Source: Candidatus Polarisedimenticolia bacterium (GTDB taxonomy: Bacteria; Acidobacteriota; Polarisedimenticolia; Gp22-AA2; AA152). Taken from it: a DNA stretch of 64,000 bases. The position numbers were made by a program, and so were the translations under genes. The notes below the pieces were generated by a model. The model searched no databases and was not told the origin of the DNA. It saw only the letters and a list, made by a program, of their open reading frames with translations. Position 1 is the stretch's first letter. Each line of letters begins with the position of its first letter. The stretch is taken from the NCBI GenBank assembly GCA_035764505.1, contig DASTZC010000281.1:326-64325 (forward strand). The letters are read 5' to 3'. Positions 5,482 to 39,181 of this stretch are shown here, piece after piece.

Positions 5482-5482
5482 C

Positions 5483-6976: not shown

Positions 6977-7023
6977 CAGATTTCGCGCGCACCCCGGTCC
7001 GCCCTGTGGCGCGGCGGGCGGCG

Positions 7024-8979
7024 TCAATTGCCCTCCGTCGCGGTGATCCGGCGCAGCGCGATGACCACGGGATGGATGCCGCCTTCCGCCAGGACCGGGG
7101 GAATGGCTGCCGCGGCGCGCTCGGCCTGGTCGATGGAGGGGTAGAAGCCGAAGCAGAGGCGGAAACACGACCGTCCCTGCAGCAGAAACGGAGTCACGAA
7201 GAACGGATCGTCGGGGTGCGTGCCGCGTGCCGCCTTGCGCAGCGACTCCTCCTGGCAGGCGATGGCAATCTGCAGGGTGAATGATTCGGCGTGGGGGCGG
7301 AGCGCCTGCGAGAAGGAGCGCGCCGCCGCCGCATGCTCGCCGGCATCCAGCTGTGCCCGGGCCTTGGCCCAGGCAGCGGATGTCACGGCACCGGCGCGCG
7401 GCGCCTCGACGCCGGGTGAGGATGCAGGAGACGCCGCCGGCACGGGTGGCGAAGCCGCCGAAGAGGCTGGGTGAGGCGCGGTCGTTTCGACGGGCGTGGC
7501 GGGGGAAGTCTCGACGGGAGCGCTTTCGGGCGTGCCGGCACCCGGCTCAGAGGTCTCGGCGGAGGGCGCCGCATCGGTGGCGCCCGAAGGTGGAGTCTGT
7601 GCCTGGGCCGTGGCTTCCTGCGGAGTCCCGGAGGGCGCCGAGGAGACATCCTCCGGGCTCGCCTCGGGAGCGGCGGTCTCGCTCGGCGGCGCCGTTTCGC
7701 TCACACCCGCGGTATCGGAGGCGCGGGCGGGAGCGCGGAGGAACACGAACCAGTAGGAAATCAGCGCCAGTAGGACGACGCCGCTCAGGATCGACAGAAC
7801 GGTCCAGGGCCGGGAAGGCTCGCTGCGCGGCAGGTGCGCGGTCCGCAGGATGGGCACCTCTTCGCCGATCGGCTCGAGGGGGAAGCTTGCCGCTGCCGGG
7901 TGTGGAGCCTCCGGGGCCGTTTCCTCTTCCGCAGAGCTCGCCGAAGCAGCGCCCTGCTCGTCCTGAGCCGAAGAAGCGGACATGGAGAACGCGCTTTCGG
8001 CAGGCATGTCGCGAATCGAGGATGCGGCCGGGTGTGAAGTCAGCGGCGGCGGCAAAGGATCCCTCCTGGACGGCTCAGGGGGAGCCACGACATCACTCAT
8101 CGGCGCTTCAGCGTCTTCGGGGTCATCGCGTATCGAGACGACGCGGATTGGCTCGGCCCCGGAAGAAGCTTCGGACGGGTACGGCTCCGGAGACGGCCTT
8201 GCGGCGGACAGCATCGCCTCGGCGTCCTCCGAAACCGCAACGGCTGCCGCTTCCGGCGTCTCTTCCACCGGAGGGTGCTCGGGGGTCAGCCGTCCCAGCA
8301 ACGACAAGCCGTAGACAATCTTGCTGGCGGAGAAATCGTCCAGTCCCGCCGCCTGTCCGAAATCCCGGATCGCCATGGGATGCGGGAAGTGATCGATCAG
8401 CTCCTTCCATCGCCGCGGCAGGGGCGCGGTGTCGGCGCCGTTCCCGCCCGTCGCAGGGACATAGACGGTGTCCGGGGCTCCCACCTCGAGCAGCACGAAG
8501 CTCCGATCCGTCAAATCTCGGATCAGATCGAGCAGCAGCTCGCGAGTGTCGACGTTCAGCGAGGTGATCTCGCGCGGGAAGAAGCCCTCCTGGGTTTCGT
8601 AGCCGGCATCGGTGAGCGGCAGCACGCTGCCGACGATCTGCCGCAGCTGCTGGCGCGCGCCGGCGAACAGCTCGCCGCTGGTCAGGAAGCCCATCTGGAC
8701 CAGGACGCGGGCCAGCGAGACGCCCGGCCGCGTCGATTTGCGCGCCAGGTCCATTTGCTCCGGCTTCAACTTTCCGGCACGGATCAGGATCGGCGCGAGA
8801 TGGTCCGCCTGGTCGTTGGAGGATGCCATGGCGATCTCACCGCCCTGGAAATAGAGAAGCTTGAGTAGCGCCCCGCGGGACAGGCGCAGGGTTCCGTCGA
8901 ATCGATTGCGGTGCAGGCGGGCGAGCAGCCGCGGGCAGGAGATCTCGGAGAGAGTGCCCGACTTCTTCACCGTTTCCAT
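7024..8979 (-). CDS. DUF4388 (PATAN-like) domain protein with long Pro/Ala/Ser/Glu-rich linker, one TM segment and C-terminal periplasmic domain
   Basis: The N-terminus CPRLLARLHRNRFDGTLRLSRGALLKLLYFQGGEI is paralogous to the 3988..5481 N-terminus. The protein shows low-complexity acidic/Pro repeats followed by a hydrophobic helix. Confidence 0.6.
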   Translation of the reverse strand: METVKKSGTLSEISCPRLLARLHRNRFDGTLRLSRGALLKLLYFQGGEIAMASSNDQADHLAPILIRAGKLKPEQMDLARKSTRPGVSLARVLVQMGFLTSGELFAGARQQLRQIVGSVLPLTDAGYETQEGFFPREITSLNVDTRELLLDLIRDLTDRSFVLLEVGAPDTVYVPATGGNGADTAPLPRRWKELIDHFPHPMAIRDFGQAAGLDDFSASKIVYGLSLLGRLTPEHPPVEETPEAAAVAVSEDAEAMLSAARPSPEPYPSEASSGAEPIRVVSIRDDPEDAEAPMSDVVAPPEPSRRDPLPPPLTSHPAASSIRDMPAESAFSMSASSAQDEQGAASASSAEEETAPEAPHPAAASFPLEPIGEEVPILRTAHLPRSEPSRPWTVLSILSGVVLLALISYWFVFLRAPARASDTAGVSETAPPSETAAPEASPEDVSSAPSGTPQEATAQAQTPPSGATDAAPSAETSEPGAGTPESAPVETSPATPVETTAPHPASSAASPPVPAASPASSPGVEAPRAGAVTSAAWAKARAQLDAGEHAAAARSFSQALRPHAESFTLQIAIACQEESLRKAARGTHPDDPFFVTPFLLQGRSCFRLCFGFYPSIDQAERAAAAIPPVLAEGGIHPVVIALRRITATEGN

Positions 8980-9198
8980 CGATCGCAGGTCCTCGGGATG
9001 GAACGCGACCGCCGCGGCAGGAAAGGGGGCTGGTCGTTCACTACCCGGGAAGTATAGTGTCGCCTCCAGGGGGTGTCAACCGTTCCGCGGCGACGGCCCG
9101 GTTCTGATAAGTGATGAGGACACAGTAAGTTCTAACAGTTTCGTCATGGTAGAATCCGGAGCGAACGAGACGACCTGCGAGCGCTCGAAAGGACCAGG

Positions 9199-14763: not shown

Positions 14764-15284
14764 CAGCGCTCCGACTGCTCCATCTCGGCTTGGACGCGTT
14801 TCAGATAGGAGGGATCGGGGGCCTTGATCCCTGAGGCGGGCAACGGCTGCACCAGCGGGGCCTCCCGCCAGGGAACGCGCGACCAGCGTCTCAGGACGAC
14901 GAGAAGGAGCACCGCGCCCGCCAGCACTGCGGCGAAGGGGGCGAGCCAGCCGACAAGGTTGAAGCCCTCGGTCGTGGGAGCCGCAAGAATCTGCTCTCCG
15001 TACTCGTCCACGTACGCCTGAAGGATCTGAGCGGGGCTCTGGCCCGAGCGGAGGCGAGTGCCGACGTCGGCGCGCACCTGATCCGCCTTGCCGCAGGTGC
15101 AGTTCTTGACCGTGAGATTGTTGCAGCCGCAATCGCAGACGATCTGCGCGGTAATCTCATCCACCGGACCGCCGTCGGGTGCATCGGCGAAGGCGCCGGC
15201 CGCGCTCAGGGCAAGCAGCACGGCGACAAACAGCCGTCGAATGCTACGCAAGAGTGCGCTCCTCCACCAGGCGGGCCCGCGCAA
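14763..15284 (-). CDS. ccmH: Cytochrome c-type biogenesis protein CcmH/NrfF-like
   Basis: It has a signal peptide, a Cys-rich segment (CDCGCNNLTVKNCTC) and a C-terminal TM segment. It is positioned between ccmF and ccmA. Confidence 0.6.
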   Translation of the reverse strand: MRGPAWWRSALLRSIRRLFVAVLLALSAAGAFADAPDGGPVDEITAQIVCDCGCNNLTVKNCTCGKADQVRADVGTRLRSGQSPAQILQAYVDEYGEQILAAPTTEGFNLVGWLAPFAAVLAGAVLLLVVLRRWSRVPWREAPLVQPLPASGIKAPDPSYLKRVQAEMEQSER

Positions 15285-17232
15285 GGAGGGCGCGCTCCCT
15301 GGCGTCGGGCCAGACGGCGACGTGCGTCCCGACGAAAATCACCATCCAGCCGATCCAGATCCAGTTGATCAGCGGATTGAGATAGGCTTTGAAGGTCGCC
15401 TGGCCGCTGTTCGGATCGAAGTCGATGAGGATCAGGTAGAGATCCTCGCGCAAGGTCGAGTGGATGTCGACCTCCGTCGAAGGCTGATTGAAGGCCTTGT
15501 AGAAGTTCCGTCCCGGGCGCAGGACCGCCACCGGATGTCCTGCCCGCTCCACCCCGAGGACGCCGATGAACGAATCCATGTTCGCGTCGCTGGTGGAGGA
15601 GGTGTCCTTGAAGGTGAGCCGGTAGGGCGACATGTCGAAAGATTCTCCCAGACGCAGCGAGAAGGTGCTCTCGCGCCGGAAGAACGAAGATCCCACTACG
15701 CCCATGAGAATCAGCACGACGCCAACGTGAACCGTGTAGCCTCCGTAGCGCCGGCGGTTCTTGCCGACGAGGTGCGCGAAGGCCGCAGGCAGCCGCTCCC
15801 CGGTGGAGAGATGTCGAGCGTGTGAGCCCCGGATGAATTCGTACGCCACGGTCCCCAGGACAAAGGCACAGAGCGTGAAAGCCACCAGCGGCGCGAAATC
15901 GCGCAATCCGCCGGCGAGCAGCACGACCAGAACCAGGGCGGCCCCCGCGGCGGGATAGAGGAAGATGCGCAGCAGGTGGTGTGCCGAGGCGCGACGCCAG
16001 GCGATCAGGGGGCATATTCCCGTGAGCGCGAGCAGGGCGAGCGCCAGGGGGAGATTGACCGTGTTGAAGAAAGGTGGCCCGACGGTGATCTTCACGCCGC
16101 GCACCGCCTCCGAGATTACCGGAAAGATGGTGCCCCAGAACACCGCGAAGCAGATCCCGACAAGAAGCAGGTTGTTGAACAGGAAGCTGCTTTCGCGAGA
16201 CACGAAGGAGTCGAGCCTTCCCTCGCTCTGCAGGCGCGGCAGCCGCCAGACCAGCAGCGTCACGGAGAACGTCACCACGATCCCCAGGAAGACTGCGAGG
16301 ACCGTGCCCACGCCGGACTTGGCGAAGGCATGGACCGAGGAGATCACACCGCTTCTTGTCAGGAAGGTTCCGAAGATTGACAGGCAGAAGGTGAGGAGAA
16401 TCAGCCCCATGTTCCATACCTTCAGCATGCGCTTCTTCTCCTGGATCATCACCGAGTGCAGGAAGGCCGTCGCCGTGAGCCAGGGCATCAGCGCCGCGTT
16501 CTCGACCGGATCCCACGCCCAGTAGCCCCCCCAACCCAGCTCGATGTAGGCCCAGTAGCCGCCCAGCAGCAGCCCGACCCCCAGAAAGAGCCAGGCGAAC
16601 AGGGTCCAGCGCCGAGTGGTGCGAATCCAGACGTCCCCGACCCTGCCCGACAGAAGCGCCCCCATGGCGAAGGCGAAAGGCACCGACACGCCGACGTATC
16701 CCAGATACAGCGTCGGCGGGTGTATCGCCATCAGTGGCGTCTGCAGCTGCGGGTTCAACCCATTGCCGTCGGGCGGGGTGAATCCCAGCAGATCGAACGG
16801 ATTGCTCGTGAAATTCAGGAGGATGAGGAAAAAGGTGGTGATGCCGGAGAGGGTGGCCACGACGTGCGGCATCAAGGCCCGGTTCTGCCTGCGGTTTTGC
16901 GCGATCACAATGGCGGAGAACACCGATAGGACGAGAACCCAGAGCAGGAGCGAGCCGGCGTGCCCACCCCAGAAGGCGGTGAACTTGAAAAGCGGAGGCA
17001 TCGCCCGGCTGGAGTACGAGGCGACGTACTCGACGTCGAAGCGGTCGCGCAGGAAAAGGGTCCACAGGGATACGGAGGCGGCGACCAGGGCGAAGGTGAC
17101 GCCCAGCGAGCCGCGCTCGCCACTTTGCACCAGCGAGCGCGAGCGCGTCAGCGCTCCCAGCGCGCAGGCCACCAGGGACCAGGCTGCGAGAACCAGGGCC
17201 AGGATCAGACAGAGGCCGCCGAACTGTGGCAT
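15244..17232 (-). CDS. ccmF: Cytochrome c-type biogenesis protein CcmF (heme lyase subunit)
   Basis: The WWD domain WGGYWAWDPVENAALMPW is present in a large polytopic membrane protein. Confidence 0.9.
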   Translation of the reverse strand: MPQFGGLCLILALVLAAWSLVACALGALTRSRSLVQSGERGSLGVTFALVAASVSLWTLFLRDRFDVEYVASYSSRAMPPLFKFTAFWGGHAGSLLLWVLVLSVFSAIVIAQNRRQNRALMPHVVATLSGITTFFLILLNFTSNPFDLLGFTPPDGNGLNPQLQTPLMAIHPPTLYLGYVGVSVPFAFAMGALLSGRVGDVWIRTTRRWTLFAWLFLGVGLLLGGYWAYIELGWGGYWAWDPVENAALMPWLTATAFLHSVMIQEKKRMLKVWNMGLILLTFCLSIFGTFLTRSGVISSVHAFAKSGVGTVLAVFLGIVVTFSVTLLVWRLPRLQSEGRLDSFVSRESSFLFNNLLLVGICFAVFWGTIFPVISEAVRGVKITVGPPFFNTVNLPLALALLALTGICPLIAWRRASAHHLLRIFLYPAAGAALVLVVLLAGGLRDFAPLVAFTLCAFVLGTVAYEFIRGSHARHLSTGERLPAAFAHLVGKNRRRYGGYTVHVGVVLILMGVVGSSFFRRESTFSLRLGESFDMSPYRLTFKDTSSTSDANMDSFIGVLGVERAGHPVAVLRPGRNFYKAFNQPSTEVDIHSTLREDLYLILIDFDPNSGQATFKAYLNPLINWIWIGWMVIFVGTHVAVWPDARERALLARARLVEERTLA

Positions 17233-17295: not shown

Positions 17296-17745
17296 TCAGG
17301 GGGAAGCGGCCATCTTTGCCTTGGCCTGACTCTCGTACTTCGAAGGACATTTCGCCAGCAGGGTATGGGCCTCGAACGCCTCGCCGCGCATCCTTCCTTC
17401 GACCACGACCTCGGCATTGTCCACGAAGGTGTCCGGAAGCTCCTTGCCGAAGACGACCGGCAGCGTGCGGGTTCCATCGGTCATCACGAACCGCGCTCCG
17501 AGGCGACCGCTGGTCTTGACGATACTTCCCGGAACCACATGTCCGTTCACGCGGAAGTGGGAGTCGAGATCGGAGGGTGGATGGTCGATGAACTCGCCGA
17601 CCGTAAGATAGTAGACCATCGAGCTGCGAAAGCTGAGCCCGACGAGAGCGGTGAAGGCCGCCAGTAAGATGACGATGCAGATGACGATCTTGGGACTGAA
17701 CCGGAGGCGCACCGGGAAGCTCTCCCCGTCCTTTGCAAAATGCAA
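17296..17745 (-). CDS. ccmE: Heme chaperone CcmE, CxxxY variant
   Basis: It has an N-terminal TM anchor and an OB-fold. The C-terminal motif LAKCPSKY replaces the canonical LAKHDENY, so a Cys sits where the heme-binding His is expected. Confidence 0.8.
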   Translation of the reverse strand: MHFAKDGESFPVRLRFSPKIVICIVILLAAFTALVGLSFRSSMVYYLTVGEFIDHPPSDLDSHFRVNGHVVPGSIVKTSGRLGARFVMTDGTRTLPVVFGKELPDTFVDNAEVVVEGRMRGEAFEAHTLLAKCPSKYESQAKAKMAASP

Positions 17746-18110: not shown

Positions 18111-18611
18111 ATGTTCAGGCAGGCCATCGAGCGTCTGGAAAAAGAGCTCCGCGCCTTGGAAAGGGAATTCCGCCACGACCTCCCCCAGGAAATCAAGAAG
18201 GCCCTCGCCATGGGGGACCTGCGCGAGAACGCCGAATACCATGCGGCCCTCGAGCGCCAGAGCTACGTCAAGGCGAAGATGGGGCAGATCAAGAAGCGCC
18301 TCTCGGAGATCGCCATGATCAAGCTCGATTCGCTGCCCAAGGACCGCGTAGGGCTCGGTTCCAGCGTTGTGCTGTTCGATCTCAAGGAGGAGAAGGAGGT
18401 GCACTACGAGCTGGTTTTCGCGGAGGACGCGGACGTCCCTCGCGGGATGATCTCGATCACCTCGCCGATCGGCAAGGGGCTTTCGGGCAAGCGCGAAGGG
18501 GACGAGGTCTCGATCCAGGTCCCCAGCGGCGTGAAGCGCTTCGAGATCGTCTCCTTGAAGACGGTGCACCAGAAGCGGCCGGCGGCCGCCCGGCCCGACG
18601 AGGAGGAATAG
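18111..18611 (+). CDS. greA: Transcription elongation factor GreA
   Basis: The coiled-coil N-terminal domain carries the acidic DLRENAEY motif, followed by an FKBP-like C-terminal domain. Confidence 0.9.
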   Translation: MFRQAIERLEKELRALEREFRHDLPQEIKKALAMGDLRENAEYHAALERQSYVKAKMGQIKKRLSEIAMIKLDSLPKDRVGLGSSVVLFDLKEEKEVHYELVFAEDADVPRGMISITSPIGKGLSGKREGDEVSIQVPSGVKRFEIVSLKTVHQKRPAAARPDEEE

Positions 18612-18617
18612 CGGCCC

Positions 18618-19601
18618 ATGCCCGAGCGCACCGCTACAGGACTCCGGCGGGCGCGCGCGCGCCGCGCCGCTCTGTGCCTCTCGGCGCTGCTCATTGCCGG
18701 GCTTTCGGCCTGTGCCGCGGAGGTCGACGTCGAGAAGCTGTTCGTGCAGTCCAACTCCGACGACTACGAGGAGCGCGTCGAGGCGCGGCAGCGGCTGGCC
18801 GAGCTGATCGAGAGCGGCAGCGTCGAGCCCTTCGCGAAAGGGCTGCAGAGCCCCAACGTCGAGACCCGCGTACAGTCGATCCTCCACCTGCTGGCGATCC
18901 ACACCCCCGAGTCGAAGAAGCCGCTCGTCGGCGAGCTGGAGCTGTCGCGCCGGTTCAACACCTTCTACAACCCGATCCGCCTCGTTCCGGTGTCGACGCC
19001 CAGCGACAGCCGCATCATGGTGGCGCACATCCTGGAGTCGAAGGGAGGCGATCCCAAGGCGGTCGAGATCCTGGCGGACAGCTACGGCAAGGAGCCGGAC
19101 ACCGCCACCCGCGTCGCCACCGTCTACGCCCTGGGGGCCCTGCAGGACAAGGCGGCGGTCCCCGCGCTGCACAAGGCCCTGCGCGATCCCGAGATGGATG
19201 TCGTCCGCGCCGCCCTCGAAGGATTGACGCAGATCCGCACTCCGGGAATCGCGGGCATGCTGATCGAAGGGCTCGCCGACCAGAACGAGACCATCCGCGC
19301 CAACTCGGCCACGGCGCTCTCGTCCTTCGGGGAGCCGGACGCGGCGAAAGCGCTGCTCGACGCGCTGCACAAGGATCCTTCCCCCAAAGTCAGGCTCTCC
19401 GCCGTCGGCGCGCTGCCGAACGCCGCAGGCTACGCGGCATTCAATCCGATCCTCTCCCTCCTGAAAGATCCACACGCGCCCCCCGAGATGAAGGACCAGG
19501 CGGCGACCTCCCTGCAGAGCCTCACCGGACAGGATTTCGGTCAGGACGCCGCCCGGTGGGCGAAGTGGTGGGAGCAGAACAAGACCACCCTGGCCCGGTA
19601 G
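18618..19601 (+). CDS. HEAT/PBS-lyase repeat lipoprotein
   Basis: A signal peptide with lipobox LSAC is followed by repeated VR..A...L HEAT-like units. Confidence 0.65.
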   Translation: MPERTATGLRRARARRAALCLSALLIAGLSACAAEVDVEKLFVQSNSDDYEERVEARQRLAELIESGSVEPFAKGLQSPNVETRVQSILHLLAIHTPESKKPLVGELELSRRFNTFYNPIRLVPVSTPSDSRIMVAHILESKGGDPKAVEILADSYGKEPDTATRVATVYALGALQDKAAVPALHKALRDPEMDVVRAALEGLTQIRTPGIAGMLIEGLADQNETIRANSATALSSFGEPDAAKALLDALHKDPSPKVRLSAVGALPNAAGYAAFNPILSLLKDPHAPPEMKDQAATSLQSLTGQDFGQDAARWAKWWEQNKTTLAR

Positions 19602-19605
19602 CGTC

Positions 19606-20457
19606 ATGTCCCTGCGCTTTCATGCATCGGTGGTCGACGCGCTGCGCCGCGGCCGGCGACTGGTGATCGCCACGGTCATCGAATCGGTCGGCTCGGCCCC
19701 GCGCAAGCCAGGCGCCTGCATGGCAGTCTTCGACGACGGAACGATAGTCGACTCCGTGGGAGGAGGGGCTTTGGAAGCCCTGGTCGTTCAGGACGCGCGT
19801 GCCCTTCTCGCATCGGGTGGTTCCCTGGTGAGGGAATACTCTCTGAAGGAGAGCTCGGAGCCGGAGAGCACCGGGATGATCTGCGGAGGGGCCGTGCGCG
19901 TGCACCTGCAATCCGAGTTTCCGCCCGAGCGCCTGGTGATCTTCGGAGCCGGACATGTCGGAGCCGCGCTCGCGGCGCTGGCGCCCGGCCTGGGCTTCGA
20001 TGCCACCGTGCTCGACGATCGGGAGGAATTCTTGGAGGCTTCCCGCTTTCCCGCCGAGGTGGCCCGCTTCCTGGCCGGGCGTGATTTCGCCGGAAGCCTG
20101 CCGCGGCTGGACGAGGAGACCTTCGTGGCCGTGGTGACGCGTTGCCACCGCAGCGACCTGGCGGCGCTGCGTCGGATCCTTCCGACCCCGGTGCGCTACG
20201 TCGGACTGATCGGCAGCCGCCGCAAGATCCGACTTCTGTCGGTGCGGCTGCGCGAAGAGGGGATACCGCCCGAGCGTCTGGAGGCGCTGCACGCCCCCAT
20301 CGGATTGTCGATCGGCGCCTGCACGCCCGCCGAAATCGCCGTCAGCATCGCGGCCGAGCTGATCCAGGTACGTCGCGGCTCGGCGGCAGAGGAGCGGAGT
20401 CCGGGCCGCCTGAGTGCAAAACGGTTCGCGGCGCGCCCCCTGGGCAGCGAGCTCTGA
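19606..20457 (+). CDS. XdhC/CoxI family protein (molybdenum cofactor insertion chaperone-like)
   Basis: It has the N-terminal XdhC_CoxI domain and a Rossmann-like C-terminal domain (VIFGAGHVGAALA). Confidence 0.75.
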   Translation: MSLRFHASVVDALRRGRRLVIATVIESVGSAPRKPGACMAVFDDGTIVDSVGGGALEALVVQDARALLASGGSLVREYSLKESSEPESTGMICGGAVRVHLQSEFPPERLVIFGAGHVGAALAALAPGLGFDATVLDDREEFLEASRFPAEVARFLAGRDFAGSLPRLDEETFVAVVTRCHRSDLAALRRILPTPVRYVGLIGSRRKIRLLSVRLREEGIPPERLEALHAPIGLSIGACTPAEIAVSIAAELIQVRRGSAAEERSPGRLSAKRFAARPLGSEL

Positions 20458-20465
20458 ACAGAGCC

Positions 20466-21200
20466 TCAGCGCCGGGCGGGAAGCGATTCCCGGCGGAGTG
20501 ACGCGGCCAGCCTGAGCCGCACTAGCGTGCGCAGGATGGCAATCCCCGCCCTCAATGTCCCCTGCACCGTTCCCGTGATCTTGGAGCGGCCGATGCGCCG
20601 CCGGTAGCTGACCGGCACCTCCATGGTCTTCCAGCCGGCCAGCGCGGCGCGCGCCTGCATCTCTACGGTCCACCCATAGGCACGATCCTCCATTCCAAGC
20701 TCCAGCAGCCGGCCGAAGCGCACCGCCCGGAAGGGACCGAGATCGGTGTAGCGCGCGCCGTAGAGCACCCGCAGGAGGAATACGGCGAGGAGATTCCCGG
20801 CGCGCGCCTGCGGCAGCAGGGCGCCCGGCTCGGCGCTTCCCAACACCCGCGATCCGATCACCAGATCGCAGCCCGCTTCGCGGATCGGGGCCAGCAGCGA
20901 CTTGATCTCCTCCGGATGATCACTGAAATCTCCATCGAGGAAGACGACGATATCGGGGGGATGCTCCCGAAGCCTATCCAGCCCGGCGAGGCAGGCGGAG
21001 CCGTAGCCGCGCCGCGCTTCGCGAACGACCGTTGCGCCGTTCGCCGCGGCTGCCTCGGCCGTCTTATCGGTCGAGCCATTGTCGACGACCAGGATCTGCT
21101 CGACGAGCCCGTCGGGGATCGCCTGCAGCACCCGGGGCAGGGAGGCTTCCTCGTTGAGAGCGGGGATGATTACGGCGACGCGGGACAGGGGAAAGGACAT
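20466..21200 (-). CDS. GT2 glycosyltransferase, polyprenyl-phosphate sugar synthase-like (DPM1/Ppm1-like soluble catalytic domain)
   Basis: VAVIIPALNEE...VVDNGSTD...DGD motifs are present. It lies divergent to a UbiA-family prenyl phosphoribosyltransferase. Confidence 0.75.
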   Translation of the reverse strand: MSFPLSRVAVIIPALNEEASLPRVLQAIPDGLVEQILVVDNGSTDKTAEAAAANGATVVREARRGYGSACLAGLDRLREHPPDIVVFLDGDFSDHPEEIKSLLAPIREAGCDLVIGSRVLGSAEPGALLPQARAGNLLAVFLLRVLYGARYTDLGPFRAVRFGRLLELGMEDRAYGWTVEMQARAALAGWKTMEVPVSYRRRIGRSKITGTVQGTLRAGIAILRTLVRLRLAASLRRESLPARR

Positions 21201-21297
21201 CGCTCCTCGAGCGGCGAAGAGGACAGGCCTTTGCAGGAAAGCGCAGCGGTGCTAACATCCGCGCCGCCTCGCGTCGCATGACGCCCAGCGGAGCACG

Positions 21298-22209
21298 ATG
21301 CCGGAGCCCCGGACGCCCAGCGGCTTCAAGCGTACCTTTCTCGACCTCCTGGAATCCACCCGCCCCCAGCAGTGGATCAAGAACCTTCTTCTCTTCGCAC
21401 CGCTCCTGTTCGCCAAGAAGCTGTCCGACAGGCACCGCATCGTCGAGGCGCTCGCCGCGTTCGCCGTCTTCTGCGCCCTGTCGGCGGGGGTCTACCTGCT
21501 CAACGATCTGCTCGACCGCAATAGGGATCTGAGCCATCCGGTCAAGTCGCGCCGGCCGATCGCCTCGGGCCGCCTGCGCCCGGGCACGGTGATCGCCGCG
21601 CTCCTGATCCTCTTCGCCGGAGGTCTCCTATCTGCCTGGCGGCTCTCCCCGGCCTTCGCGGCGACCGCCCTGTCCTACGTCCTGCTGAATCTCGCCTATT
21701 CCTTCTATCTCAAGGAAAAGGTCATCCTGGACGTCATGGCGATCGCCTTCGGGTTCGTGCTGAGGGCCCTGGCGGGAGCGGTCGCCATCGACGTGGAAAT
21801 CTCCCCCTGGCTCATCCTGTGCACCATTCTGTTGTCGCTATTCCTGGCCTTCTGCAAGCGGCGCTGTGAGCTGGAATCGCTGGAGCAGGATTCGGCGAAC
21901 CATCGGATCACGCTGGGGGAGTATTCTCTGGTCTTTCTGGACCAGATGATCTCGATCACCACGGCTTCGACCGTGGTCTGCTACTCCTTCTACACCATCT
22001 CCCCCGAGGTGGAGGAGAAGCTCGGCACGCAGCATCTGTTCATCACCATCCCTTTCGTCCTGTATGGGATCTTCCGCTACCTCTACCTGGTCCATCGCAA
22101 GGGGCAGGGCGGAAACCCCGCCTCGTCCCTTCTCGCCGATCGACCGCTGCTGGTGTGCGTCGGATTGTGGGCGGCCGTGGTGGCCGCCATCCTCTATCAC
22201 TACCACTGA
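21298..22209 (+). CDS. UbiA-family decaprenyl-phosphate phosphoribosyltransferase-like (DPPR synthase-like)
   Basis: YLLNDLLDRNRDLSHPVKSRRPIASG matches the NDxxDxxxD...HPxK..RPIA(A)G signature of DPPR synthases. The protein has 8-9 TM segments. Confidence 0.7.
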   Translation: MPEPRTPSGFKRTFLDLLESTRPQQWIKNLLLFAPLLFAKKLSDRHRIVEALAAFAVFCALSAGVYLLNDLLDRNRDLSHPVKSRRPIASGRLRPGTVIAALLILFAGGLLSAWRLSPAFAATALSYVLLNLAYSFYLKEKVILDVMAIAFGFVLRALAGAVAIDVEISPWLILCTILLSLFLAFCKRRCELESLEQDSANHRITLGEYSLVFLDQMISITTASTVVCYSFYTISPEVEEKLGTQHLFITIPFVLYGIFRYLYLVHRKGQGGNPASSLLADRPLLVCVGLWAAVVAAILYHYH

Positions 22210-22309
22210 GACATCCCCCTCCGCCGTTCTCCACGGTTGCCCCGTGGCGCTCCGGACACTAGAATGTTCATTCAAAGGCCCGCCAAGAGGCCCTTTCCCG
22301 GAGCGCTCG

Positions 22310-23458
22310 TTGCCTAAATCGAAAGTCGCCGTCCTCCGCACAGAGCCCGAGACGATCTTCCAGGACTATTCTCGCCTGATGCGCCTGGCGGGTTACCGGG
22401 ACATCCTCGACCCGGCGTCGCCGCTGCTGATCAAGCTCAACCTCTCCTGGACGAAATACTTCCCTGCCTGCTCGAGCCAGCCCTGGCAGCTGGAAGGGGT
22501 CCTGCAGACGCTGCGCGAGGACGGCTATCCGGGATCCCTCTTGACGCCGGTCGAGAACAAGACGGTGGTGACCGAGCCCTGGGCTGGAGCGCGCAACAAC
22601 CGCTGGCTCCCGGTGCTCGATCGCTTCGGGCTGAAGTTCCAGCCCCTCACCGAGGTGGAATGGATCGTCTATCGCTTCAAGTCCCCCCTGCTGATGCTCA
22701 ATCGGATTTTCCCGGAGGGGATCGAGATTCCTTCCATCTATCCGGGCCGCAACGTGCTGCACCTGCCGACCGTCAAGACCCACGGTCATTCCACCACGAC
22801 GGGATCGATCAAGAACGCTTTCGGCGGGCTCCTCAAGGAGGTGCGGCACTACGCCCACAAGCACATTCACGAGGTGCTCGTGGACCTGGTGATGATGCAG
22901 AAGGAGCTTCATCCGGCCGTTTTCACGGTGATGGACGGCACGGTGGCCGGAAATGGCGCCGGGCCCCGCACCATGGAGCCGATCGTCAAGGATACGCTGC
23001 TGGCGGCGGCCGACTCGGTCGCGATCGACGCAGTCGCCGCCAAGCTGATGGGGTTCGATCCGATGTCGATTCCTTACCTGAGGATGGCCCACGACCGGGG
23101 GCTCGGCACGGCCGACCCGCGCGACATCGAGATCGTCGGCACCTCGGTCCAAGGGCCGGGATGGGGATTCCACGCCAAGCGCAGCTTCGTGATCTGGGGG
23201 GACCAGATGCTGCGTCTCGGGCCGCTGCGCTTCCTGGAGAAGATCGCCCTGCACTCTCCGCTGGTGGTCTGGGCGCCCTTCGCCTCGAACGTCTACCACG
23301 ACTGGCTCTGGTACCCGACGGTCGGAAAAATGAAGATCGCCCGGTTCCGTGGCAGCAAGTGGGGGCAACTGTTCGATGGCAGGTACGGGGGCGGGTCGCG
23401 CGCGGGCGCCGGCCAGGCCGCGCCGATGCCAGCCTCCTCGCCCGGCGCTTCCCGCTGA
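22310..23458 (+). CDS. DUF362 domain protein
   Basis: KVAVLRTEPETIFQDY... resembles the DUF362 family. A TTG start with GGAG 7 nt upstream is used; the longer ORF from 22064 overlaps the UbiA gene. Confidence 0.5.
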   Translation: MPKSKVAVLRTEPETIFQDYSRLMRLAGYRDILDPASPLLIKLNLSWTKYFPACSSQPWQLEGVLQTLREDGYPGSLLTPVENKTVVTEPWAGARNNRWLPVLDRFGLKFQPLTEVEWIVYRFKSPLLMLNRIFPEGIEIPSIYPGRNVLHLPTVKTHGHSTTTGSIKNAFGGLLKEVRHYAHKHIHEVLVDLVMMQKELHPAVFTVMDGTVAGNGAGPRTMEPIVKDTLLAAADSVAIDAVAAKLMGFDPMSIPYLRMAHDRGLGTADPRDIEIVGTSVQGPGWGFHAKRSFVIWGDQMLRLGPLRFLEKIALHSPLVVWAPFASNVYHDWLWYPTVGKMKIARFRGSKWGQLFDGRYGGGSRAGAGQAAPMPASSPGASR

Positions 23459-23492
23459 AAACCGCCGAACCCTGAAAGAGACGAGGAGCGGA

Positions 23493-24383
23493 GTGCATTC
23501 CGCCGAGATCCGCCGCCCGTTTCCTCCCGCCGCCGTGCTGGTCGTCGCCGTCCTGGCGATCTCCTGGGGCTCGATCCTGGTCCGATACTGCACCGCCGGT
23601 CCGCTGGCGATTGCCTGCCTGCGGCTCACCTTCGCCACCCTGTTCCTGGCTCCGTTCGTCCTGCCGGGTCTCGGCCGCGCTGCGCCGCGCCCACGCGCCG
23701 CTTGGCGCACCTTGCTGGCTGCGGGCTTCCTGGCGCTGCACTTCGGGGCCTGGATCGCCTCCTTGCGCCTGACCAGCATCGGCAGCTCGGTTCTCCTGGT
23801 TTCCACTCAGCCGCTGTTCTCGGCGCAGTTGTCGGGCGCCTGGCTCGGCGAGCGGCCCGGCAAGCGCTTCTACGCGGGGATCGCCATCTGCCTGGCCGGA
23901 ATGCTCCTGCTCACGGGGGCCGATTTCGGCTCGTCGCGCGCGCGCCTGCTCGGGGATGCCCTGGCGCTGCTTGCGGCCGCTGCCGGCGCCGCCTATTTCG
24001 TTCTCGGCCGATCGGTACGCTCCGATGTCCCTTTCGGCGCCTATCTCTTCCTGGTCTACGGCGCCGCCGGGGCTTTTCTGGCGGTGGCGGCTTTTCTTGC
24101 CCATCAGCCGCTGATCGGATTCCCATCGCGCGAGTTTCTGCCGCTGGCGGCCATGGCCTTGTTTCCGAGCGTCCTCGGCCACGGCGGATTGAACTATGCC
24201 GTACGTCATCTGCCGGCCTTCACGGTCAGCCTGGCGGCATTGGGCGAGCCGGTGCTCGCCACGCTCCTCGCCCGATGGCTCTTCGACGAGCCGCTTTCCG
24301 CCGGGCTTCTCGCCGGCGGCTCGCTGATCCTCGCCGGGATGCTGCTGGCGGCGGCCCCGGCCGCCAAGGTGCAGCCGGCGTGA
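23493..24383 (+). CDS. EamA/DMT family transporter
   Basis: Ten predicted TM helices and two EamA repeats are present. The GTG start is preceded by AGGAG. The longer ORF from 23349 is rejected. Confidence 0.7.
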   Translation: MHSAEIRRPFPPAAVLVVAVLAISWGSILVRYCTAGPLAIACLRLTFATLFLAPFVLPGLGRAAPRPRAAWRTLLAAGFLALHFGAWIASLRLTSIGSSVLLVSTQPLFSAQLSGAWLGERPGKRFYAGIAICLAGMLLLTGADFGSSRARLLGDALALLAAAAGAAYFVLGRSVRSDVPFGAYLFLVYGAAGAFLAVAAFLAHQPLIGFPSREFLPLAAMALFPSVLGHGGLNYAVRHLPAFTVSLAALGEPVLATLLARWLFDEPLSAGLLAGGSLILAGMLLAAAPAAKVQPA

Positions 24384-29011: not shown

Positions 29012-29245
29012 ATGGCGAGAAGAGAGGAAATCCTGACCAGCGCTGAGGCCCGTCGCTACTTGAAGATCGGACGGACCAAGCTATGGCAGCTCACCAAGGA
29101 GCAGGTGATTCCCTGCTACCGGCTGGGGAGCTCGCGCAACGCAACGATCCGGTACAAGCGCTCCGAGCTGCTGAAGTGGCTCGAGAAGCACCGCTTCGTG
29201 CCGACCGGGCCGATGGCGGGGAATGGGCAAGGCGACGGGCATTGA
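29012..29245 (+). CDS. Excisionase/MerR-like helix-turn-helix DNA-binding protein (77 aa)
   Basis: ARRYLKIGRTKLWQLTKEQVIPCYRLG resembles an Xis-family HTH. It lies immediately upstream of the NusG paralog. Confidence 0.55.
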   Translation: MARREEILTSAEARRYLKIGRTKLWQLTKEQVIPCYRLGSSRNATIRYKRSELLKWLEKHRFVPTGPMAGNGQGDGH

Positions 29246-29262
29246 GAGGGACGGGGAAGGGC

Positions 29263-30470: not shown

Positions 30471-31486
30471 TCGGCGCCACCTCCGAATCGTTCCGGAGCT
30501 TCGCGGCCGAGGGCCTCGGTGTCGCGCCGCGCGATCTCACGGTGATGATGATCCACCGCCCCCACGAGGACAAGAACTACGTCGACCAGTCGATTTACTT
30601 CTACTTTCTGCCCCAGCAGCGCTATCCCGCGGTGGTCGGCAAGGTCGGCTTCGACAGGGATGGGGCCCGCTACCTGGAGCGCGAGCACCGCGGCCTGCAG
30701 GCGCTGGTGAGTCGCGGTCCGGCGATTCCGATCGAGTCGGTTCCCCGCCCGATCCTGTATCGCGAGATCTCCGGCAACTATCTCCTCCTGCAGTCGGCGC
30801 TCAAGGGGGACAAGATCGCCACCTGGATCACGCCCCGGGCACGTCTCAACGGCCGGGTCACGAGGCTGCTGCAGTGGGCCCCGCGGTTCAGCGCGGCGCT
30901 GGGCAACGCCACCCGCTGCGACGGCGGCGCCCTGGTCCCGGTCTGGACCGAGGAGTTCAGCGTCAAGCTGGACCGCACCGGCCGCTCACGCACGCTCCTG
31001 GAAACCGCCGCCCGCAACGTATGGGAGGCCTTTGGCAAGACCTTCCCGGCGGTCCTGGCGCACGGCGATTTCTGCGGCGAGAACATCCTCGAGGACGGCC
31101 CGCGCCACGGAGTGATCGACTGGGAGCTGTGCGACGAGCTCTCGCTGCCGGCGTACGACCTCCTGGACTTGTGCCTGTGGCTGTCGTTCCGCACCGAAGG
31201 GAGCGGCCGCTGGGATCCCTTCAACGCCCTCGACCGGGTGCTCAACGGCCGGGACTTCCTGGCGCAGGAGATGCGGAAAGCGCTGGGCGAGTACGCGCGC
31301 GAGATGCGCTTTCCGGCCCGCATCCTGCCCGAGGTCCTGGCGCTGGCCTGGGCCGGATACTGCCTGAAGAAGTTCCGTTACCTGCAGCAGGACGAGACCG
31401 GCAGCTTCGCCCGCGCCCGCGCGGGCGTGCGCAAGATTCTCGACACGCCGCCGGAGTTCCTCTCCGGTGAAGGGGGAACGGCGTGA
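30467..31486 (+). CDS. Aminoglycoside phosphotransferase (APH)/protein-kinase-like fold phosphotransferase
   Basis: The Brenner motif HGDFCGENIL and VIDWE are present. The longer ORF from 29909 is rejected. Confidence 0.6.
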   Translation: MIGATSESFRSFAAEGLGVAPRDLTVMMIHRPHEDKNYVDQSIYFYFLPQQRYPAVVGKVGFDRDGARYLEREHRGLQALVSRGPAIPIESVPRPILYREISGNYLLLQSALKGDKIATWITPRARLNGRVTRLLQWAPRFSAALGNATRCDGGALVPVWTEEFSVKLDRTGRSRTLLETAARNVWEAFGKTFPAVLAHGDFCGENILEDGPRHGVIDWELCDELSLPAYDLLDLCLWLSFRTEGSGRWDPFNALDRVLNGRDFLAQEMRKALGEYAREMRFPARILPEVLALAWAGYCLKKFRYLQQDETGSFARARAGVRKILDTPPEFLSGEGGTA

Positions 31487-32985
31487 GCATCGGCAGGGTG
31501 GTCCGCAACATCTCAGCCGGCTATGTCGGGGCGGCGGTCAACGGCGCGACGCTGCTGATCCTGACGCCCTTGGTGATCCGCAGCCTCGGCACCCTGGAGT
31601 ATGGCCTCTGGGTGACCGCGACGGCGCTGGGGAGCTACTTCGGCTCCCTCAACGCCGGCAGCGGCGCCGCCGGGGTCAGGTCGGTGGCTTCCGGCGCGGC
31701 GCGGGAGGGCTTCGACCAGGCCAGCCGGGAGCTGGGGTCCATCTTCCGCGTCTACTGCGTCCTGGGAATCCTGGCATGCGTCGGATTGATCGGTCTCGGC
31801 TTCATCACGCTCGACCGGTTCGGCGTTCCCCCGGAGCTGAAGGTCTCCATGCGCTGGCTGATCGCGCTCATCGGGATCAACTTTCTGATCTCCTTTCCCT
31901 TCGGCCTGACCCGCAGTGCGCTGGCCGGGATGCAGTATTTCGGGCTGCTCAACACCGTCGAGGTTGCCACAGCGCTTTTCCGCCTGGCGGCCACCGCGGC
32001 GCTGCTGGCGGCAGGGATGGGGGTCGTCTCGCTCGGGGTGGTGCAGCTGATCGCGTCGGTCGCCGGGCACCTCGCCCGCTGGCGCGCGATCCGCCGCCTG
32101 GCGCCGGAGATTCATCTGACCGGTGGCCCGACCTACCGCAAGCTGGTGCCCCAGGCCTTTCTCTTCTCCGCCCTTTCCTTCGGGTACGAGAGCCTGAGGA
32201 CGCTTTTCGAAAACTCCGATCTGCTGATCCTCGGCCTGCTCGCGGGGCCGCAGGCGGTGGCCCTGTTCGCCGTGGCGGCCACGGTCGCCTCCTTCGTTTC
32301 CAAGGGGCTGCAGCCCGTCTCCAACGTCCTGTTCCCGCTCGCCTCGCGCGCCGATTCCCAGGGAACGGCGCAGGCGCGCCTGCTCGAGGTGGCCACGCGG
32401 GTGAATCTGGCGCTGGCCCTGCCGGTGGTGACGCTCCTGATGGTGGACGGTGGCGCGCTCCTGCGGTTGTGGGCCGGTGAGTCTTTTGCCTCCAGCCTCC
32501 CGATCCTGCGCGCCCTCGCCCTGGCGGCGCTGGTCACGGCGGCCTCGCTGGCACCCACGACGCTGCTGTTCGGAGCCGGACGCGTGGGAGTCCTGCTGGG
32601 GGCGGAATCGTGGCGCTACGCCCTCAACCTCGCGCTTGTGGTGGTGGGATACCGCCTCTATGACTTGCCGGGCGCGGCGGTGGGCACGCTCGCGGCGACG
32701 CTCGGAATCGACGCCTGGCTGGTGCTGCGGCGCTGCTGTCCCTGGGGCGGCGTCGATCCGAAAAGCTTCCTGATCCATTCGGTGGGAGCCCCGCTCCTGA
32801 CCGGGCTCCCGGTGGTCCTCCTGATGGCCGCCTGGAAATCGTGGGCTCCTGATCCTTCTCTGCCTCTCCTGCTGGCCAGGGCCGCGGCGTGCCTCGGGGC
32901 TTTCGCCCTGATGTACGGCGTGAGCGGCACCTTCCGCGAGGAGCGGCGTCTCGTCGTGCGCGCATGGGCGGAGGTGTTCCGATGA
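31483..32985 (+). CDS. wzx: Wzx-type polysaccharide flippase (MOP/PST family)
   Basis: It has about 12-14 TM helices and a Polysacc_synt-like profile. Confidence 0.8.
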   Translation: MSIGRVVRNISAGYVGAAVNGATLLILTPLVIRSLGTLEYGLWVTATALGSYFGSLNAGSGAAGVRSVASGAAREGFDQASRELGSIFRVYCVLGILACVGLIGLGFITLDRFGVPPELKVSMRWLIALIGINFLISFPFGLTRSALAGMQYFGLLNTVEVATALFRLAATAALLAAGMGVVSLGVVQLIASVAGHLARWRAIRRLAPEIHLTGGPTYRKLVPQAFLFSALSFGYESLRTLFENSDLLILGLLAGPQAVALFAVAATVASFVSKGLQPVSNVLFPLASRADSQGTAQARLLEVATRVNLALALPVVTLLMVDGGALLRLWAGESFASSLPILRALALAALVTAASLAPTTLLFGAGRVGVLLGAESWRYALNLALVVVGYRLYDLPGAAVGTLAATLGIDAWLVLRRCCPWGGVDPKSFLIHSVGAPLLTGLPVVLLMAAWKSWAPDPSLPLLLARAAACLGAFALMYGVSGTFREERRLVVRAWAEVFR

Positions 32986-34736
32986 ATCCCGGTTTGGTGT
33001 CGCGAGCCCGCAAGTCTCCGCCTCCATTCGGCGAGGTACCGCTTCGCGAGTGGCTCTTCCCGCTCGGCGTGGCCGCTCTCCTGATGGCCATCGTGTGGAT
33101 TCCCTACTCTCTGGGCTACAGCCTGCAGGACGGCACGCATCGCTTCATGGGGCTGGTGGGCACGGACGCGATCGATGACAACAACGTTTACCTGGGCCTG
33201 ATGCGCCAGTCTGCCGAAGGACGGGTGCTGTTCACCAACAACTTCACGCCGGAGCCGAACCCGCCCGCGCTGTTCAACTTCCTCTACCTTTCGCTCGGCC
33301 GGATCTCGCGCTGGACCGGGATGAGCCTTGATCAGACGCATCGCGCGTTCGGCGCTCTGTCGATTCTGCTGCTCACGCTGACCATCTACGGCTTCATCGC
33401 CACCGCCATCCGTCGCCCTTTCTACCGCCGCTTCGCCCTGGTGCTCGCCTGCTTCGGAGGCGGCTTCCTGTGGCTCTCGCGCATCATCCTGCGGATGACC
33501 GGTGTCGACCTCAAGCCGATCACCGCCTGGCTCGTGGAAGTAAATCTCTTCCACGCGATGCTCGTCTATCCGCATTTTGTCTTCGCCGCCGCGCTGATGA
33601 CCGGCTCGCTCGTCATGTACCTCAAATCGGAGCGGGTGCGGCGCTACATGCCGGCGGCGGCGGCCGGCTGCGTGGCGACGATCCTCGCCGCCAGCCATGC
33701 CTTCGAGGCCGTGGCTTTCATTCCGATCGCCGGCGCCTATCTGGTGCTCGACGCGCTGGGGCTCGGGCGAATGCCGGGGGCCAGCCGCTGGAAGTGCTGC
33801 GCGCTGGTCATCGGGATGCCGGTGGGGATGCTGCTGGTGAATCGCTGGATGCTGATCCTGGAGCCGGCCTGGGGAGACGTGGTGACACGGCTGTCGTTCC
33901 AGACGCCGGAGCCCTTCCGCCTGATCCTCGGCCTGGGGGCCTCTTTCGCCATCTCGGTGCTGACTTTCGAAGGCTTCCTGCGCGTCGACCGCCCATCCGG
34001 AGAGCGCATGGCGAAGGCCTGGGTGCTCATGGTTCTGGTGCTGGCCTATGTACCGTACATCAACTGGCGCTGGCACCTGCTCAACGGCATCCAGATCCCG
34101 CTGTCCATTCTCGCGACCCAGGGGCTGCGGCGCACGGTGTTCCTGCGCATCCAGCGGCGGCGGCGGGCGCTCGGCAAGCGGCGCATTGTGCCGCGCGGCA
34201 TCTGGGCTCCGGCACCGCAGATGGCGGTCATGGCGCTGGTCGGCATCATCTGCTGCCTGAGCGTGGCGAACCTCTTCCTCCATTACAAATACCAGGTGCA
34301 GGACATGAGCTCGCCTACCTACCTCACCCGCGGCGAGCTGTCGGCGATGGACTGGATGAGCCGCAACGTGTCGCTCGATTCGGTGGTCCTCGGCTCCTAC
34401 AAGACCGGCAACTACGTGCCGCGACTGTCGGGACAGCGGGTCTTCCTGGGCGAGGACATGCTCACGCAGGCTTTCGAGATTCGCGCACGGGACGTGGGGG
34501 AGTTCTACTCGACGCATTGGAACGACACGCAGCGCGAGGCGCTCCTCAGGCACTACCAGGTGGGATACGTGGTGTACGGGCCGCCGGAGCGCGAGCTGGG
34601 CTCGTACGATCCGTCCGCCTCCAGCTTCCTGCACCGGATCTACGAGGCCGACGGGGTCGAGATCTTCGCGGTGAAGCAGGAGGGAGAGGGAGGCATGCGC
34701 ACCGCAACCCTTCCGGAAAAGGAGCCTTTGCCTTGA
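32982..34736 (+). CDS. Large polytopic membrane protein, putative GT-C fold glycosyltransferase or polymerase
   Basis: It has more than 12 TM segments. GTDAIDDNNVY in the first extracytoplasmic loop is a DD-type motif, and there is a C-terminal ~200-aa soluble domain. It uses an ATGA overlap. Confidence 0.45.
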   Translation: MNPGLVSRARKSPPPFGEVPLREWLFPLGVAALLMAIVWIPYSLGYSLQDGTHRFMGLVGTDAIDDNNVYLGLMRQSAEGRVLFTNNFTPEPNPPALFNFLYLSLGRISRWTGMSLDQTHRAFGALSILLLTLTIYGFIATAIRRPFYRRFALVLACFGGGFLWLSRIILRMTGVDLKPITAWLVEVNLFHAMLVYPHFVFAAALMTGSLVMYLKSERVRRYMPAAAAGCVATILAASHAFEAVAFIPIAGAYLVLDALGLGRMPGASRWKCCALVIGMPVGMLLVNRWMLILEPAWGDVVTRLSFQTPEPFRLILGLGASFAISVLTFEGFLRVDRPSGERMAKAWVLMVLVLAYVPYINWRWHLLNGIQIPLSILATQGLRRTVFLRIQRRRRALGKRRIVPRGIWAPAPQMAVMALVGIICCLSVANLFLHYKYQVQDMSSPTYLTRGELSAMDWMSRNVSLDSVVLGSYKTGNYVPRLSGQRVFLGEDMLTQAFEIRARDVGEFYSTHWNDTQREALLRHYQVGYVVYGPPERELGSYDPSASSFLHRIYEADGVEIFAVKQEGEGGMRTATLPEKEPLP

Positions 34737-39170: not shown

Positions 39171-39181
39171 GGGACTGAGAA

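Follow-up and report, generated by a model that had tools for sequence, protein, structure and literature searches.

A candidate lipid-linked pentofuranose donor module, UbiA-DUF362-EamA, in a Polarisedimenticolia genome and in several other bacterial phyla

In mycobacteria, lipid-linked pentofuranose donors serve as drug targets, and in Gram-negative pathogens they drive antigenic diversity; to our knowledge, their biochemistry has been worked out for only a handful of organisms. The Mycobacterium tuberculosis pathway builds on decaprenyl phosphate and includes the phosphoribosyltransferase Rv3806c, the PAP2 protein Rv3807c, DprE1 and DprE2, and the GtrA/SMR-type protein Rv3789. In Rv3806c, phosphoribosyl pyrophosphate (PRPP) is contacted by R22, K28, Y70, N73, D77, K87, R90, Q135, Y138, K143 and Y157, and the phosphoribose-binding sites are not common to the rest of the UbiA superfamily (PMC10994848). 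Three-component systems, which are widespread in Gram-negative bacteria and have GT136 as their prototype GT-C transferase, combine a polyprenyl-phosphate 5-phosphoribosyltransferase (PPPRS), with or without a fused HAD phosphatase, with auxiliary epimerases (an SDR for xylofuranose, DprE1/DprE2 for arabinofuranose), a MATE or SMR flippase and a GT-C enzyme (Kelly et al. 2024, PMC11127046). Here we analyse a 64-kb window, the whole of a stretch of 64,000 nucleotides from contig DASTZC010000281.1 of a Candidatus Polarisedimenticolia bacterium, in which a gene for a UbiA-family PPPRS homologue (21298..22209) is followed on the plus strand by genes for a DUF362 protein (22310..23458) and an EamA/DMT-family transporter (~23493..24383). 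Our reading, to which we give a probability of roughly 0.6, is that these three genes (21298..24383) form a variant module for a lipid-linked pentofuranose donor; the module is found again in several phyla. The type of pathway is already known; what deserves attention is the UbiA-DUF362(-EamA) module, with its uncharacterised and highly conserved partner.

The UbiA gene encodes a protein of 303 aa carrying LNDLLDRNRDLSHPVKSRRPIASG, which fits the signature NDxxDxxxD...HPxK...RPIASG. An earlier reading of this DNA (the original prediction) had described it as a DPPR synthase paired with a divergent GT2 glycosyltransferase gene, and both open reading frames (ORFs) and the motif were confirmed. 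The Pfam UbiA domain was matched over residues 50–269 (E 3.5e-26), and two NCBIfam models scored above their cutoffs: NF008977 (decaprenyl-phosphate phosphoribosyltransferase) at 294 bits against a cutoff of 234 (E 1.3e-87), and NF008978 at 220.5 bits against 207. The other models of the family (heme O synthase, 4-hydroxybenzoate prenyltransferases, MqnP, chlorophyll synthase and GGGP-type) gave at most 41 bits. A phmmer alignment to the Rv3806c structure (8j8j) was collinear, residues 17–298 on 17–298 (E 1.9e-37), with 91 of 278 aligned positions identical (32.7%) and closely similar total lengths (303 vs 302 aa). The PRPP contacts of Rv3806c correspond to R22, K28, Y66, N69, D73, K83, R86, N131, Y134, K139 and F153. 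Nine of the eleven are identical and two are changed conservatively (Q135 to N131, and Y157 to F153, a Tyr to Phe exchange also found in some mycobacteria). All 11 positions are invariant across 15 orthologues (down to 56% identity), and N69, D70, D73 and D77 make up the Mg2+/pyrophosphate motif NDxxDxxxD. A crude hydropathy scan found six strong segments, where the UbiA fold has nine transmembrane helices.

Because the DPPR-synthase models score far above all others, the alignment with Rv3806c is collinear and the PRPP contacts are kept, we assign the UbiA protein as a PRPP-dependent transferase, which very likely moves phosphoribose onto polyprenyl phosphate. As with Rv3806c, GT-C enzymes would be the expected consumers of its product. 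If the protein were instead an ordinary aromatic or quinone prenyltransferase of the MenA/UbiA/MqnP type that had been mislabelled by homology, this would fit the name '4-hydroxybenzoate polyprenyltransferase' that JGI gives to many orthologues, and a Pfam match to nothing narrower than the generic UbiA domain. We consider this extremely improbable. The ubiA_proteo, MqnP and heme O synthase models reach 22.9, 20.9 and 36 bits, respectively, K28, Y66, N131 and F153 occupy positions that in Rv3806c contact the 5-phosphate and ribose of PRPP, and our scans of the window found no quinone-pathway genes nearby. The comparison of model scores supports a DPPR-synthase/PPPRS-type phosphoribosyltransferase, as originally predicted, and does not place the protein with the quinone prenyltransferases.

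Taken alone, the UbiA gene is an ordinary and already correctly annotated member of a known, widespread family, and NCBI names such orthologues decaprenyl-phosphate phosphoribosyltransferase. Searched exhaustively with the protein by phmmer, 1.84 billion cluster representatives (50% identity) yielded 9,970 clusters at E<=1e-10, of which 2,932 reach E<=1e-30, and at least 589 matching stretches were found with one genome per GTDB species. The view that this chemistry is rarely documented outside Actinobacteria, with rhizobial NoeC as the precedent, is outdated by the 2,932 clusters, by the three-component systems and by the Pseudomonas pilin work cited with them (PMC11127046). The loci that we examined in detail, the best 80 of the at least 589 matching stretches (48–74% identical), carry the labels Acidobacteriota, Aminicenantes, Vicinamibacterales, Bacteroidota, Ignavibacteria, Chlorobiaceae, Planctomycetota, Myxococcota, Elusimicrobiota, Zixibacteria, Omnitrophota, Methylomirabilota and Nitrospinia, among others. 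This one PPPRS subfamily (NF008977) is spread over many uncultured lineages, where it travels with DUF362 and often EamA, not with known phosphatase or epimerase genes.

Gene neighbourhoods were compared across 82 non-redundant species loci (tblastn, ORF clustering with strict coverage and HMM search); L numbers denote the related loci compared with the window. In 30 of the 82 loci, DUF362 is the next gene 3' of UbiA in the same orientation, usually at a spacing of 10–100 nt; about 66 of the 82 have enough downstream sequence for the adjacency to be judged. Loci with the pair are labelled Acidobacteriota, Aminicenantes, Bacteroidota, Ignavibacteria, Chlorobiaceae, Planctomycetota, Methylomirabilota and 'Eubacteriales', and UbiA stands directly upstream in all three additional DUF362 orthologues that were checked, which had been picked solely by the length of their contigs. 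DUF362 is also the better conserved of the two (70–75% identity where UbiA has 57–60%). EamA follows the pair in the clade of the window and in metagenome-assembled genomes (MAGs) labelled Bacteroidota, Ignavibacteriaceae and Chlorobiaceae (L025, L031, L053 and L085), with the order MutL-UbiA-DUF362-EamA-SpoIIE-RecG in L053. The GT2 gene, which the original prediction had made the partner of UbiA, does adjoin it in the window (20466..21200, minus strand), but only within this acidobacterial lineage, at nine distinct loci (the window, L001, L003, L008, L009, L032, L089, L094 and L096). Close relatives L087, L088 and L095 keep UbiA-DUF362 and lack GT2, and every locus outside the lineage is without GT2 too. 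The conserved partner of this UbiA subfamily is DUF362, not the lineage-specific GT2.

In the 100-nt gap between UbiA and DUF362 lies the single sigma-70-like match of the region 20300-24600 (22237-22265, plus strand, TTGCCC-17-TAGAAT, 9/12), a weak hint that DUF362-EamA may also be transcribed separately.

Other genes follow UbiA in loci without DUF362. In Elusimicrobiota L010 (8963-12083) and Omnitrophota L054 (9811-10854) the next gene encodes an NAD-dependent epimerase/dehydratase, and a PHP phosphoesterase gene stands just upstream of UbiA in L010. A 122-aa SMR/EamA-like protein comes next in Myxococcota L014, an LPG_synthase_TM protein in L033 and a Wza-type exporter in L021. The classes found on either side of UbiA in these loci (epimerase, phosphoesterase, SMR-like) fit the three-component scheme (PMC11127046). 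A separate arrangement recurs in Vicinamibacterales loci (L015, L017, L018, L048 and others), where a STAS-domain protein gene, UbiA and a gene for a 318-349-aa protein are followed 2-3 kb downstream by GT4-like genes. The 318-349-aa protein has no Pfam match and a low-complexity tail, and a small zinc-ribbon protein is encoded about 630 nt upstream.

The DUF362 gene of the window starts at a TTG preceded by GGAG and encodes 382 aa (Pfam DUF362, 79 bits). A hydropathy scan found no transmembrane (TM) segment and no evident signal sequence. The protein is predicted from this to be cytoplasmic and therefore would act before flipping. A single Cys is invariant among the orthologues, so the protein should not be an Fe-S protein, and an invariant His/Lys-rich block is present (H151, K156, H158, H160, K168, H180, H183, K184, H187 and E188). 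The C-terminal extension beyond the Pfam domain is rich in aromatic residues (Trp/Tyr/Phe 18.7% vs 8.1% elsewhere). DUF362 shares a Pfam clan with DUF2088, the N-terminal domain of LarA (PMC11770544). When an AlphaFold2 model (pLDDT 81, pTM 0.84) was compared with the PDB using Foldseek, the only hits at probability 0.91-1.0 were LarA-type nickel-pincer racemases (E 4e-3, TM-score 0.32-0.42). Likeness to LarA stops at that level: sequence and profile searches against solved structures matched no LarA chain, the only Pfam family matched at E<=10 was PF04015 (DUF362), with no DUF2088/LarA_N, and no larB, larC or larE was seen among the annotated neighbours in the relatives' loci.

DUF362 probably acts in the same pathway as UbiA, a link for which we found no paper connecting DUF362 with UbiA or PPPRS in the literature searched. 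An attractive guess is that it is an epimerase acting on polyprenyl-P-ribose(-5-P), because the same slot holds an epimerase in other phyla and the fold clan is one of racemases and epimerases. A novel 5'-phosphatase is equally open, because dephosphorylation must occur and has no assigned enzyme. As a bolder and doubtful proposal, DUF362 would supply the processing step for lipid-linked phosphoribose that otherwise lacks an enzyme, as either a metal- or cofactor-dependent epimerase of the LarA clan that replaces DprE1/DprE2 or the SDR epimerases, or a new 5'-phosphatase, and the module would make a conserved pentofuranosylated component of the envelope. If this were true, the epimerase reading would open a new way of making polyprenyl-P-linked arabinose, xylose or another pentose, and a conserved pentofuranosylated envelope component would have gone unnoticed in Acidobacteriota, the FCB group and other phyla. 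The association gives DUF362, a large family without known function, a concrete and testable biochemical context.

Searches for the enzymes of arabinose formation bear on which sugar is made. The DprE1 and DprE2 query sequences were validated by PDB matches over their full length (1058 and 546 bits), and neither had a tblastn match at E<=1e-3 in the window or in 89 related loci. Neither a PAP2 nor a HAD phosphatase was found among the scanned ORFs of the window or the annotated neighbours in the relatives, and the UbiA protein has no fused HAD domain. Because DprE1 and DprE2 are without a match, we take the sugar to be ribofuranose or another epimer or derivative, and drop arabinose. In the window and the related loci nothing points to arabinose, and we do not read the locus as a mycobacterial-type arabinose pathway as had been suggested. 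In place of the Rv3807c-type PAP2 protein, DprE1/DprE2 and the GtrA/SMR-type Rv3789 of M. tuberculosis, the partners here are DUF362 and EamA, and the lipid is presumably undecaprenyl-P rather than decaprenyl-P.

The EamA protein (~296 aa, GTG start; Pfam EamA 105 bits over two repeats) has eight hydrophobic segments in a hydropathy scan. We regard it as a candidate flippase for the lipid-linked pentose, with confidence a little short of even.

Whether such a lipid would feed GT-C enzymes can be judged best from the relatives. The acidobacterial loci L088, L089, L094 and L095 carry, in order, UbiA, DUF362, a sulfatase/alkaline-phosphatase-superfamily protein, a TMTC_DUF1736+TPR protein, a PMT/PMT_2 protein and a PMT_2 protein, so that three GT-C genes are present in each string; the ends of the plus-strand genes overlap or abut, and the middle PMT gene is convergent. 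In the Aminicenantes MAG L067, UbiA-DUF362 is followed by a TMTC-like GT-C gene whose product has a TM region homologous to that of L088, and beside it stands a homologue of the window protein encoded at 43932..46355 (BLASTP E 2e-24, 523 columns). Altogether, at least seven loci (L088, L089, L094, L095, L067, L009 and L037) have GT-C genes directly behind DUF362. These UbiA-DUF362-GT-C strings are the strongest support for the idea that the lipid-linked pentose feeds GT-C enzymes, which we favour, though with no great assurance. A jackhmmer search seeded with TMTC sequences was restricted to strong or TM-region matches checked by BLASTP; it also drew in TPR proteins, for example those encoded at 3991..5595 and 5486..7546 of the window. 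The sulfatase/alkaline-phosphatase-superfamily protein of the four strings (about 480-490 aa; 10165-11634 in L088, with equivalents in L089, L094 and L095) is absent from the window. Its gene and the DUF362 stop overlap; in the same pathway it might work as phosphatase, phosphotransferase or periplasmic modifier.

In the window itself a Wzx-type polysaccharide locus extends from 27105 onward, starting 4.9 kb past the UbiA stop, which agrees with the original placement of a locus about 5 kb downstream; its description as rich in GT-C enzymes, of which five had been counted, was not borne out. The only downstream protein passing a GT-C model is encoded at 58768..60255 on the plus strand (Pfam PMT_2, 36.9 bits with a cutoff of 26.1; about eight hydrophobic segments). 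A polytopic membrane protein with about ten hydrophobic segments (43932..46355, plus strand) is a possible GT-C-type transferase, with sub-threshold matches to GT22/PMT_2 (E 2e-3 to 1e-2) and to the LA_3751 family (32 bits against a cutoff of 200). The product of 40565..42691 has a weak sub-threshold match to membrane families of glycopolymer formation, the polytopic product of 32889..34736 matched no family, and 31483..32985 encodes a Wzx-type flippase, not a GT-C enzyme. Delivery of furanosyl residues from a polyprenyl-P-pentose to GT-C transferases, as the original prediction had it, survives as a general idea on the strength of the relatives' strings; the arabinose part does not.

The GT2 gene (20466..21200, minus strand; 244 aa) is divergent from UbiA across 97 bp (21201..21297) and matches Pfam Glycos_transf_2 at 73.7 bits; a 100% identical protein is known from a Candidatus Polarisedimenticolia MAG. 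The best NCBIfam model for the GT2 protein is AglJ (115 bits vs a cutoff of 325), and it falls below all curated equivalog cutoffs (DPhHxTase 63 vs 375, PpgS 50 vs 370 and ArnC 38 vs 529 bits). An AlphaFold2 model of the protein (pLDDT 91) was about equally close to DPMS, ArnC and the soluble GpgS in Foldseek. Because this fold search could not separate them, we relied on profile alignment. A profile of 37 GT2 orthologues had Pyrococcus furiosus DPMS (5mlz) as its best PDB match, over positions 4-209 (E 8.9e-16), and the match covers the donor and acceptor halves, including the C-terminal EVP..R.G.SK block, whereas with GpgS only the nucleotide-binding N-terminal half was aligned (6-109/126). 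The protein has no hydrophobic segment, and its C-terminus contains an amphipathic helix (212-235); human DPM1 and M. tuberculosis Ppm1, for comparison, are anchored through a partner subunit. 'DPM1/Ppm1-like, TM-less' is a fair description judged from these comparisons, in keeping with the soluble DPM1/Ppm1-like enzyme first proposed: the profile matches DPMS in both catalytic halves and AglJ is the best model, while the scores below the equivalog cutoffs, the lack of TM helices and the equal closeness of the fold to GpgS set the protein apart from DPMS, DPM1, Ppm1 and AglJ. Our best guess, at about even odds, is that it is a polyprenyl-P-hexose synthase serving PMT-type GT-C enzymes. In one genome an orthologue lies inside a GT2/GT87/PMT cluster.

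A promoter and terminator pattern scan of the 97-bp gap found no sigma-70-like site; its sole match was a terminator-like hairpin on the minus strand (21213-21201), at chance level. In the Planctomycetota MAGs L092 (5247-6693) and L093 (5340-6738), GT2 orthologues at 64-65% identity have a DUF2064 gene directly upstream.

These data also allow the model of the original prediction to be weighed as a whole, namely a mycobacterial-type decaprenyl-P-arabinose pathway in which a DPPR synthase and a Ppm1-like GT2 feed arabinofuranose or ribofuranose to five GT-C enzymes. It gains from the DPPR-synthase homology of the UbiA protein and from the divergent GT2-UbiA pair at nine acidobacterial loci, which in L096 is kept though the HEAT-repeat and XdhC genes that elsewhere lie between GreA and the pair are missing, and which in L089 and L094 borders the three-GT-C string. 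The results for DprE1/DprE2, PAP2 and the downstream GT-C candidates speak against it, as do the absence of GT2 from L087, L088, L095 and every locus outside the lineage and the occurrence of GT2 orthologues, at 64-65% identity, in unrelated contexts. We judge this model improbable. The tie of GT2 to UbiA is lineage-specific, and GT2 is not part of the core of the module.

From family membership, active-site conservation and the conserved gene order of the UbiA-DUF362-EamA module we infer each of the biochemical steps that follow. On the cytoplasmic face the UbiA protein would transfer ribose-5-phosphate from PRPP to polyprenyl phosphate, in the manner of Rv3806c and PPPRS; the lipid carrier is presumably undecaprenyl-P in this Gram-negative-type organism. 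Cytoplasmic DUF362 would then most likely act on the lipid-linked phosphoribose, by removing the 5-phosphate or changing the stereochemistry of the sugar, and EamA (DMT superfamily) would most likely flip the polyprenyl-P-pentose, once complete, to the periplasmic side of the membrane, where GT-C transferases would attach the pentofuranose to a glycan or protein, the candidates being 58768..60255 and possibly 43932..46355 in the window, and the TMTC-, PMT- and PMT_2-type genes after DUF362 in relatives. The divergent GT2 probably makes a separate polyprenyl-P-hexose donor for PMT-type GT-C enzymes. Such a pathway would resemble those of Citrobacter youngae O1/O2 (ORF15-ORF14-ORF12) and of Pseudomonas aeruginosa pilin with its D-arabinofuranose, in which a PPPRS homologue, a putative flippase and GT-C transferases occur together and auxiliary enzymes modify the lipid-linked ribose before export (PMC11127046); UbiA and GT-C genes likewise stand in one string in the window's relatives. 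It would differ from the three-component systems in lacking a fused HAD-type PRP domain, in having EamA/DMT instead of MATE and DUF362 in the auxiliary slot, in the TMTC/PMT-like character of the relatives' GT-C neighbours, and in the position of the window module among housekeeping genes and not in an O-antigen locus. The module suggests that bacteria abundant in soil and sediment carry out a kind of envelope glycosylation that has yet to be studied.

Several observations weigh against the proposed donor module. The 5'-dephosphorylation that it makes obligatory has no phosphatase of a known type (HAD-type PRP or PAP2) in the window, and the weak LarA resemblance of DUF362 (Foldseek E 4e-3, TM-score 0.32-0.42) has no counterpart in sequence. 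EamA proteins carry a wide range of small metabolites. Flippases known from such pathways are MATE or SMR/GtrA-like, not 10-TM EamA (PMC11127046). Of the loci whose downstream sequence is long enough, fewer than half have DUF362 next to UbiA, so that it is not universal, and the GT-C candidates of the window lie 22-36 kb away in a separate Wzx-type exopolysaccharide (EPS) locus, with RecG in between. For the whole subfamily the case is built from sequence and gene order. Finally, the module sits among housekeeping genes (GreA and RecG, and MutL in L053), which is unusual for a variable glycan decoration and may indicate a different end product.

This last point leads to the possibility that UbiA-DUF362(-EamA) makes a housekeeping lipid or membrane-bound metabolite and not a donor for GT-C enzymes, for example a phosphoribosyl-polyprenyl compound transformed by DUF362 and then exported or used as such. 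Besides the setting (GreA and RecG in the window, MutL and RecG in L053), the cross-phylum identity of UbiA (~50%) and DUF362 (45-50%) is unusually high for a glycan decoration, many loci have no GT-C gene within 10 kb, and the failure to find a phosphatase would also agree. We nevertheless think it unlikely, since GT-C genes come directly after DUF362 in at least seven loci, the neighbours in other phyla (epimerase, SMR-like and Wza) suit a glycan pathway, and all characterised family members make glycosyl donors. The donor-module reading remains the one that we prefer.

The surrounding genes were mapped from codon-position G+C and Pfam scans (window G+C ~68%). At lower coordinates than the GT2 gene lie CcmF (15244..17232, minus strand), CcmE (17296..17745, minus strand) and, on the plus strand, GreA (18111..18611), a HEAT-repeat protein (18618..19601) and an XdhC-like protein (19606..20457); downstream of EamA, RecG ends at 26413 on the plus strand. 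The GreA, HEAT-repeat and XdhC-like block (18111-20457) stands upstream of UbiA throughout the Polarisedimenticolia-like lineage (L005/L006, L088, L089, L094 and L095), and in L005/L006 the end of XdhC overlaps the beginning of UbiA. With the 'XdhC family aldehyde oxidoreductase maturation factor' model, whose cutoff is 350 bits, the XdhC-like protein reached a score of only 251. At 2242-9075 on the minus strand are a Ser/Thr protein kinase, two DUF4388/PatA_N-domain proteins (one with DnaJ and TPR domains) and a TPR + Peptidase_MA_2 protein, a regulatory cluster that is also kept in the relative L087.

In the polysaccharide locus, a NusG-domain paralogue is encoded near the head (29083-29781, plus strand) after a Wza-like gene, an order kept in L001, L003 and L087, where an HTH_17 gene precedes the paralogue; this NusG-domain protein may act as an antiterminator dedicated to the long EPS operon. 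One ORF (49837-51750, plus strand) joins a sugar-1-phosphate nucleotidyltransferase and hexapeptide-repeat region to a Bac_transf initiating phosphoglycosyl transferase. The locus also encodes a SPASM-domain radical SAM enzyme, two B12-binding radical SAM enzymes and a carbamoyltransferase (39179-40282, 47028-48818, 54869-57673 and 60149-62005), which suggests unusual sugar modifications such as C-methylation and carbamoylation.

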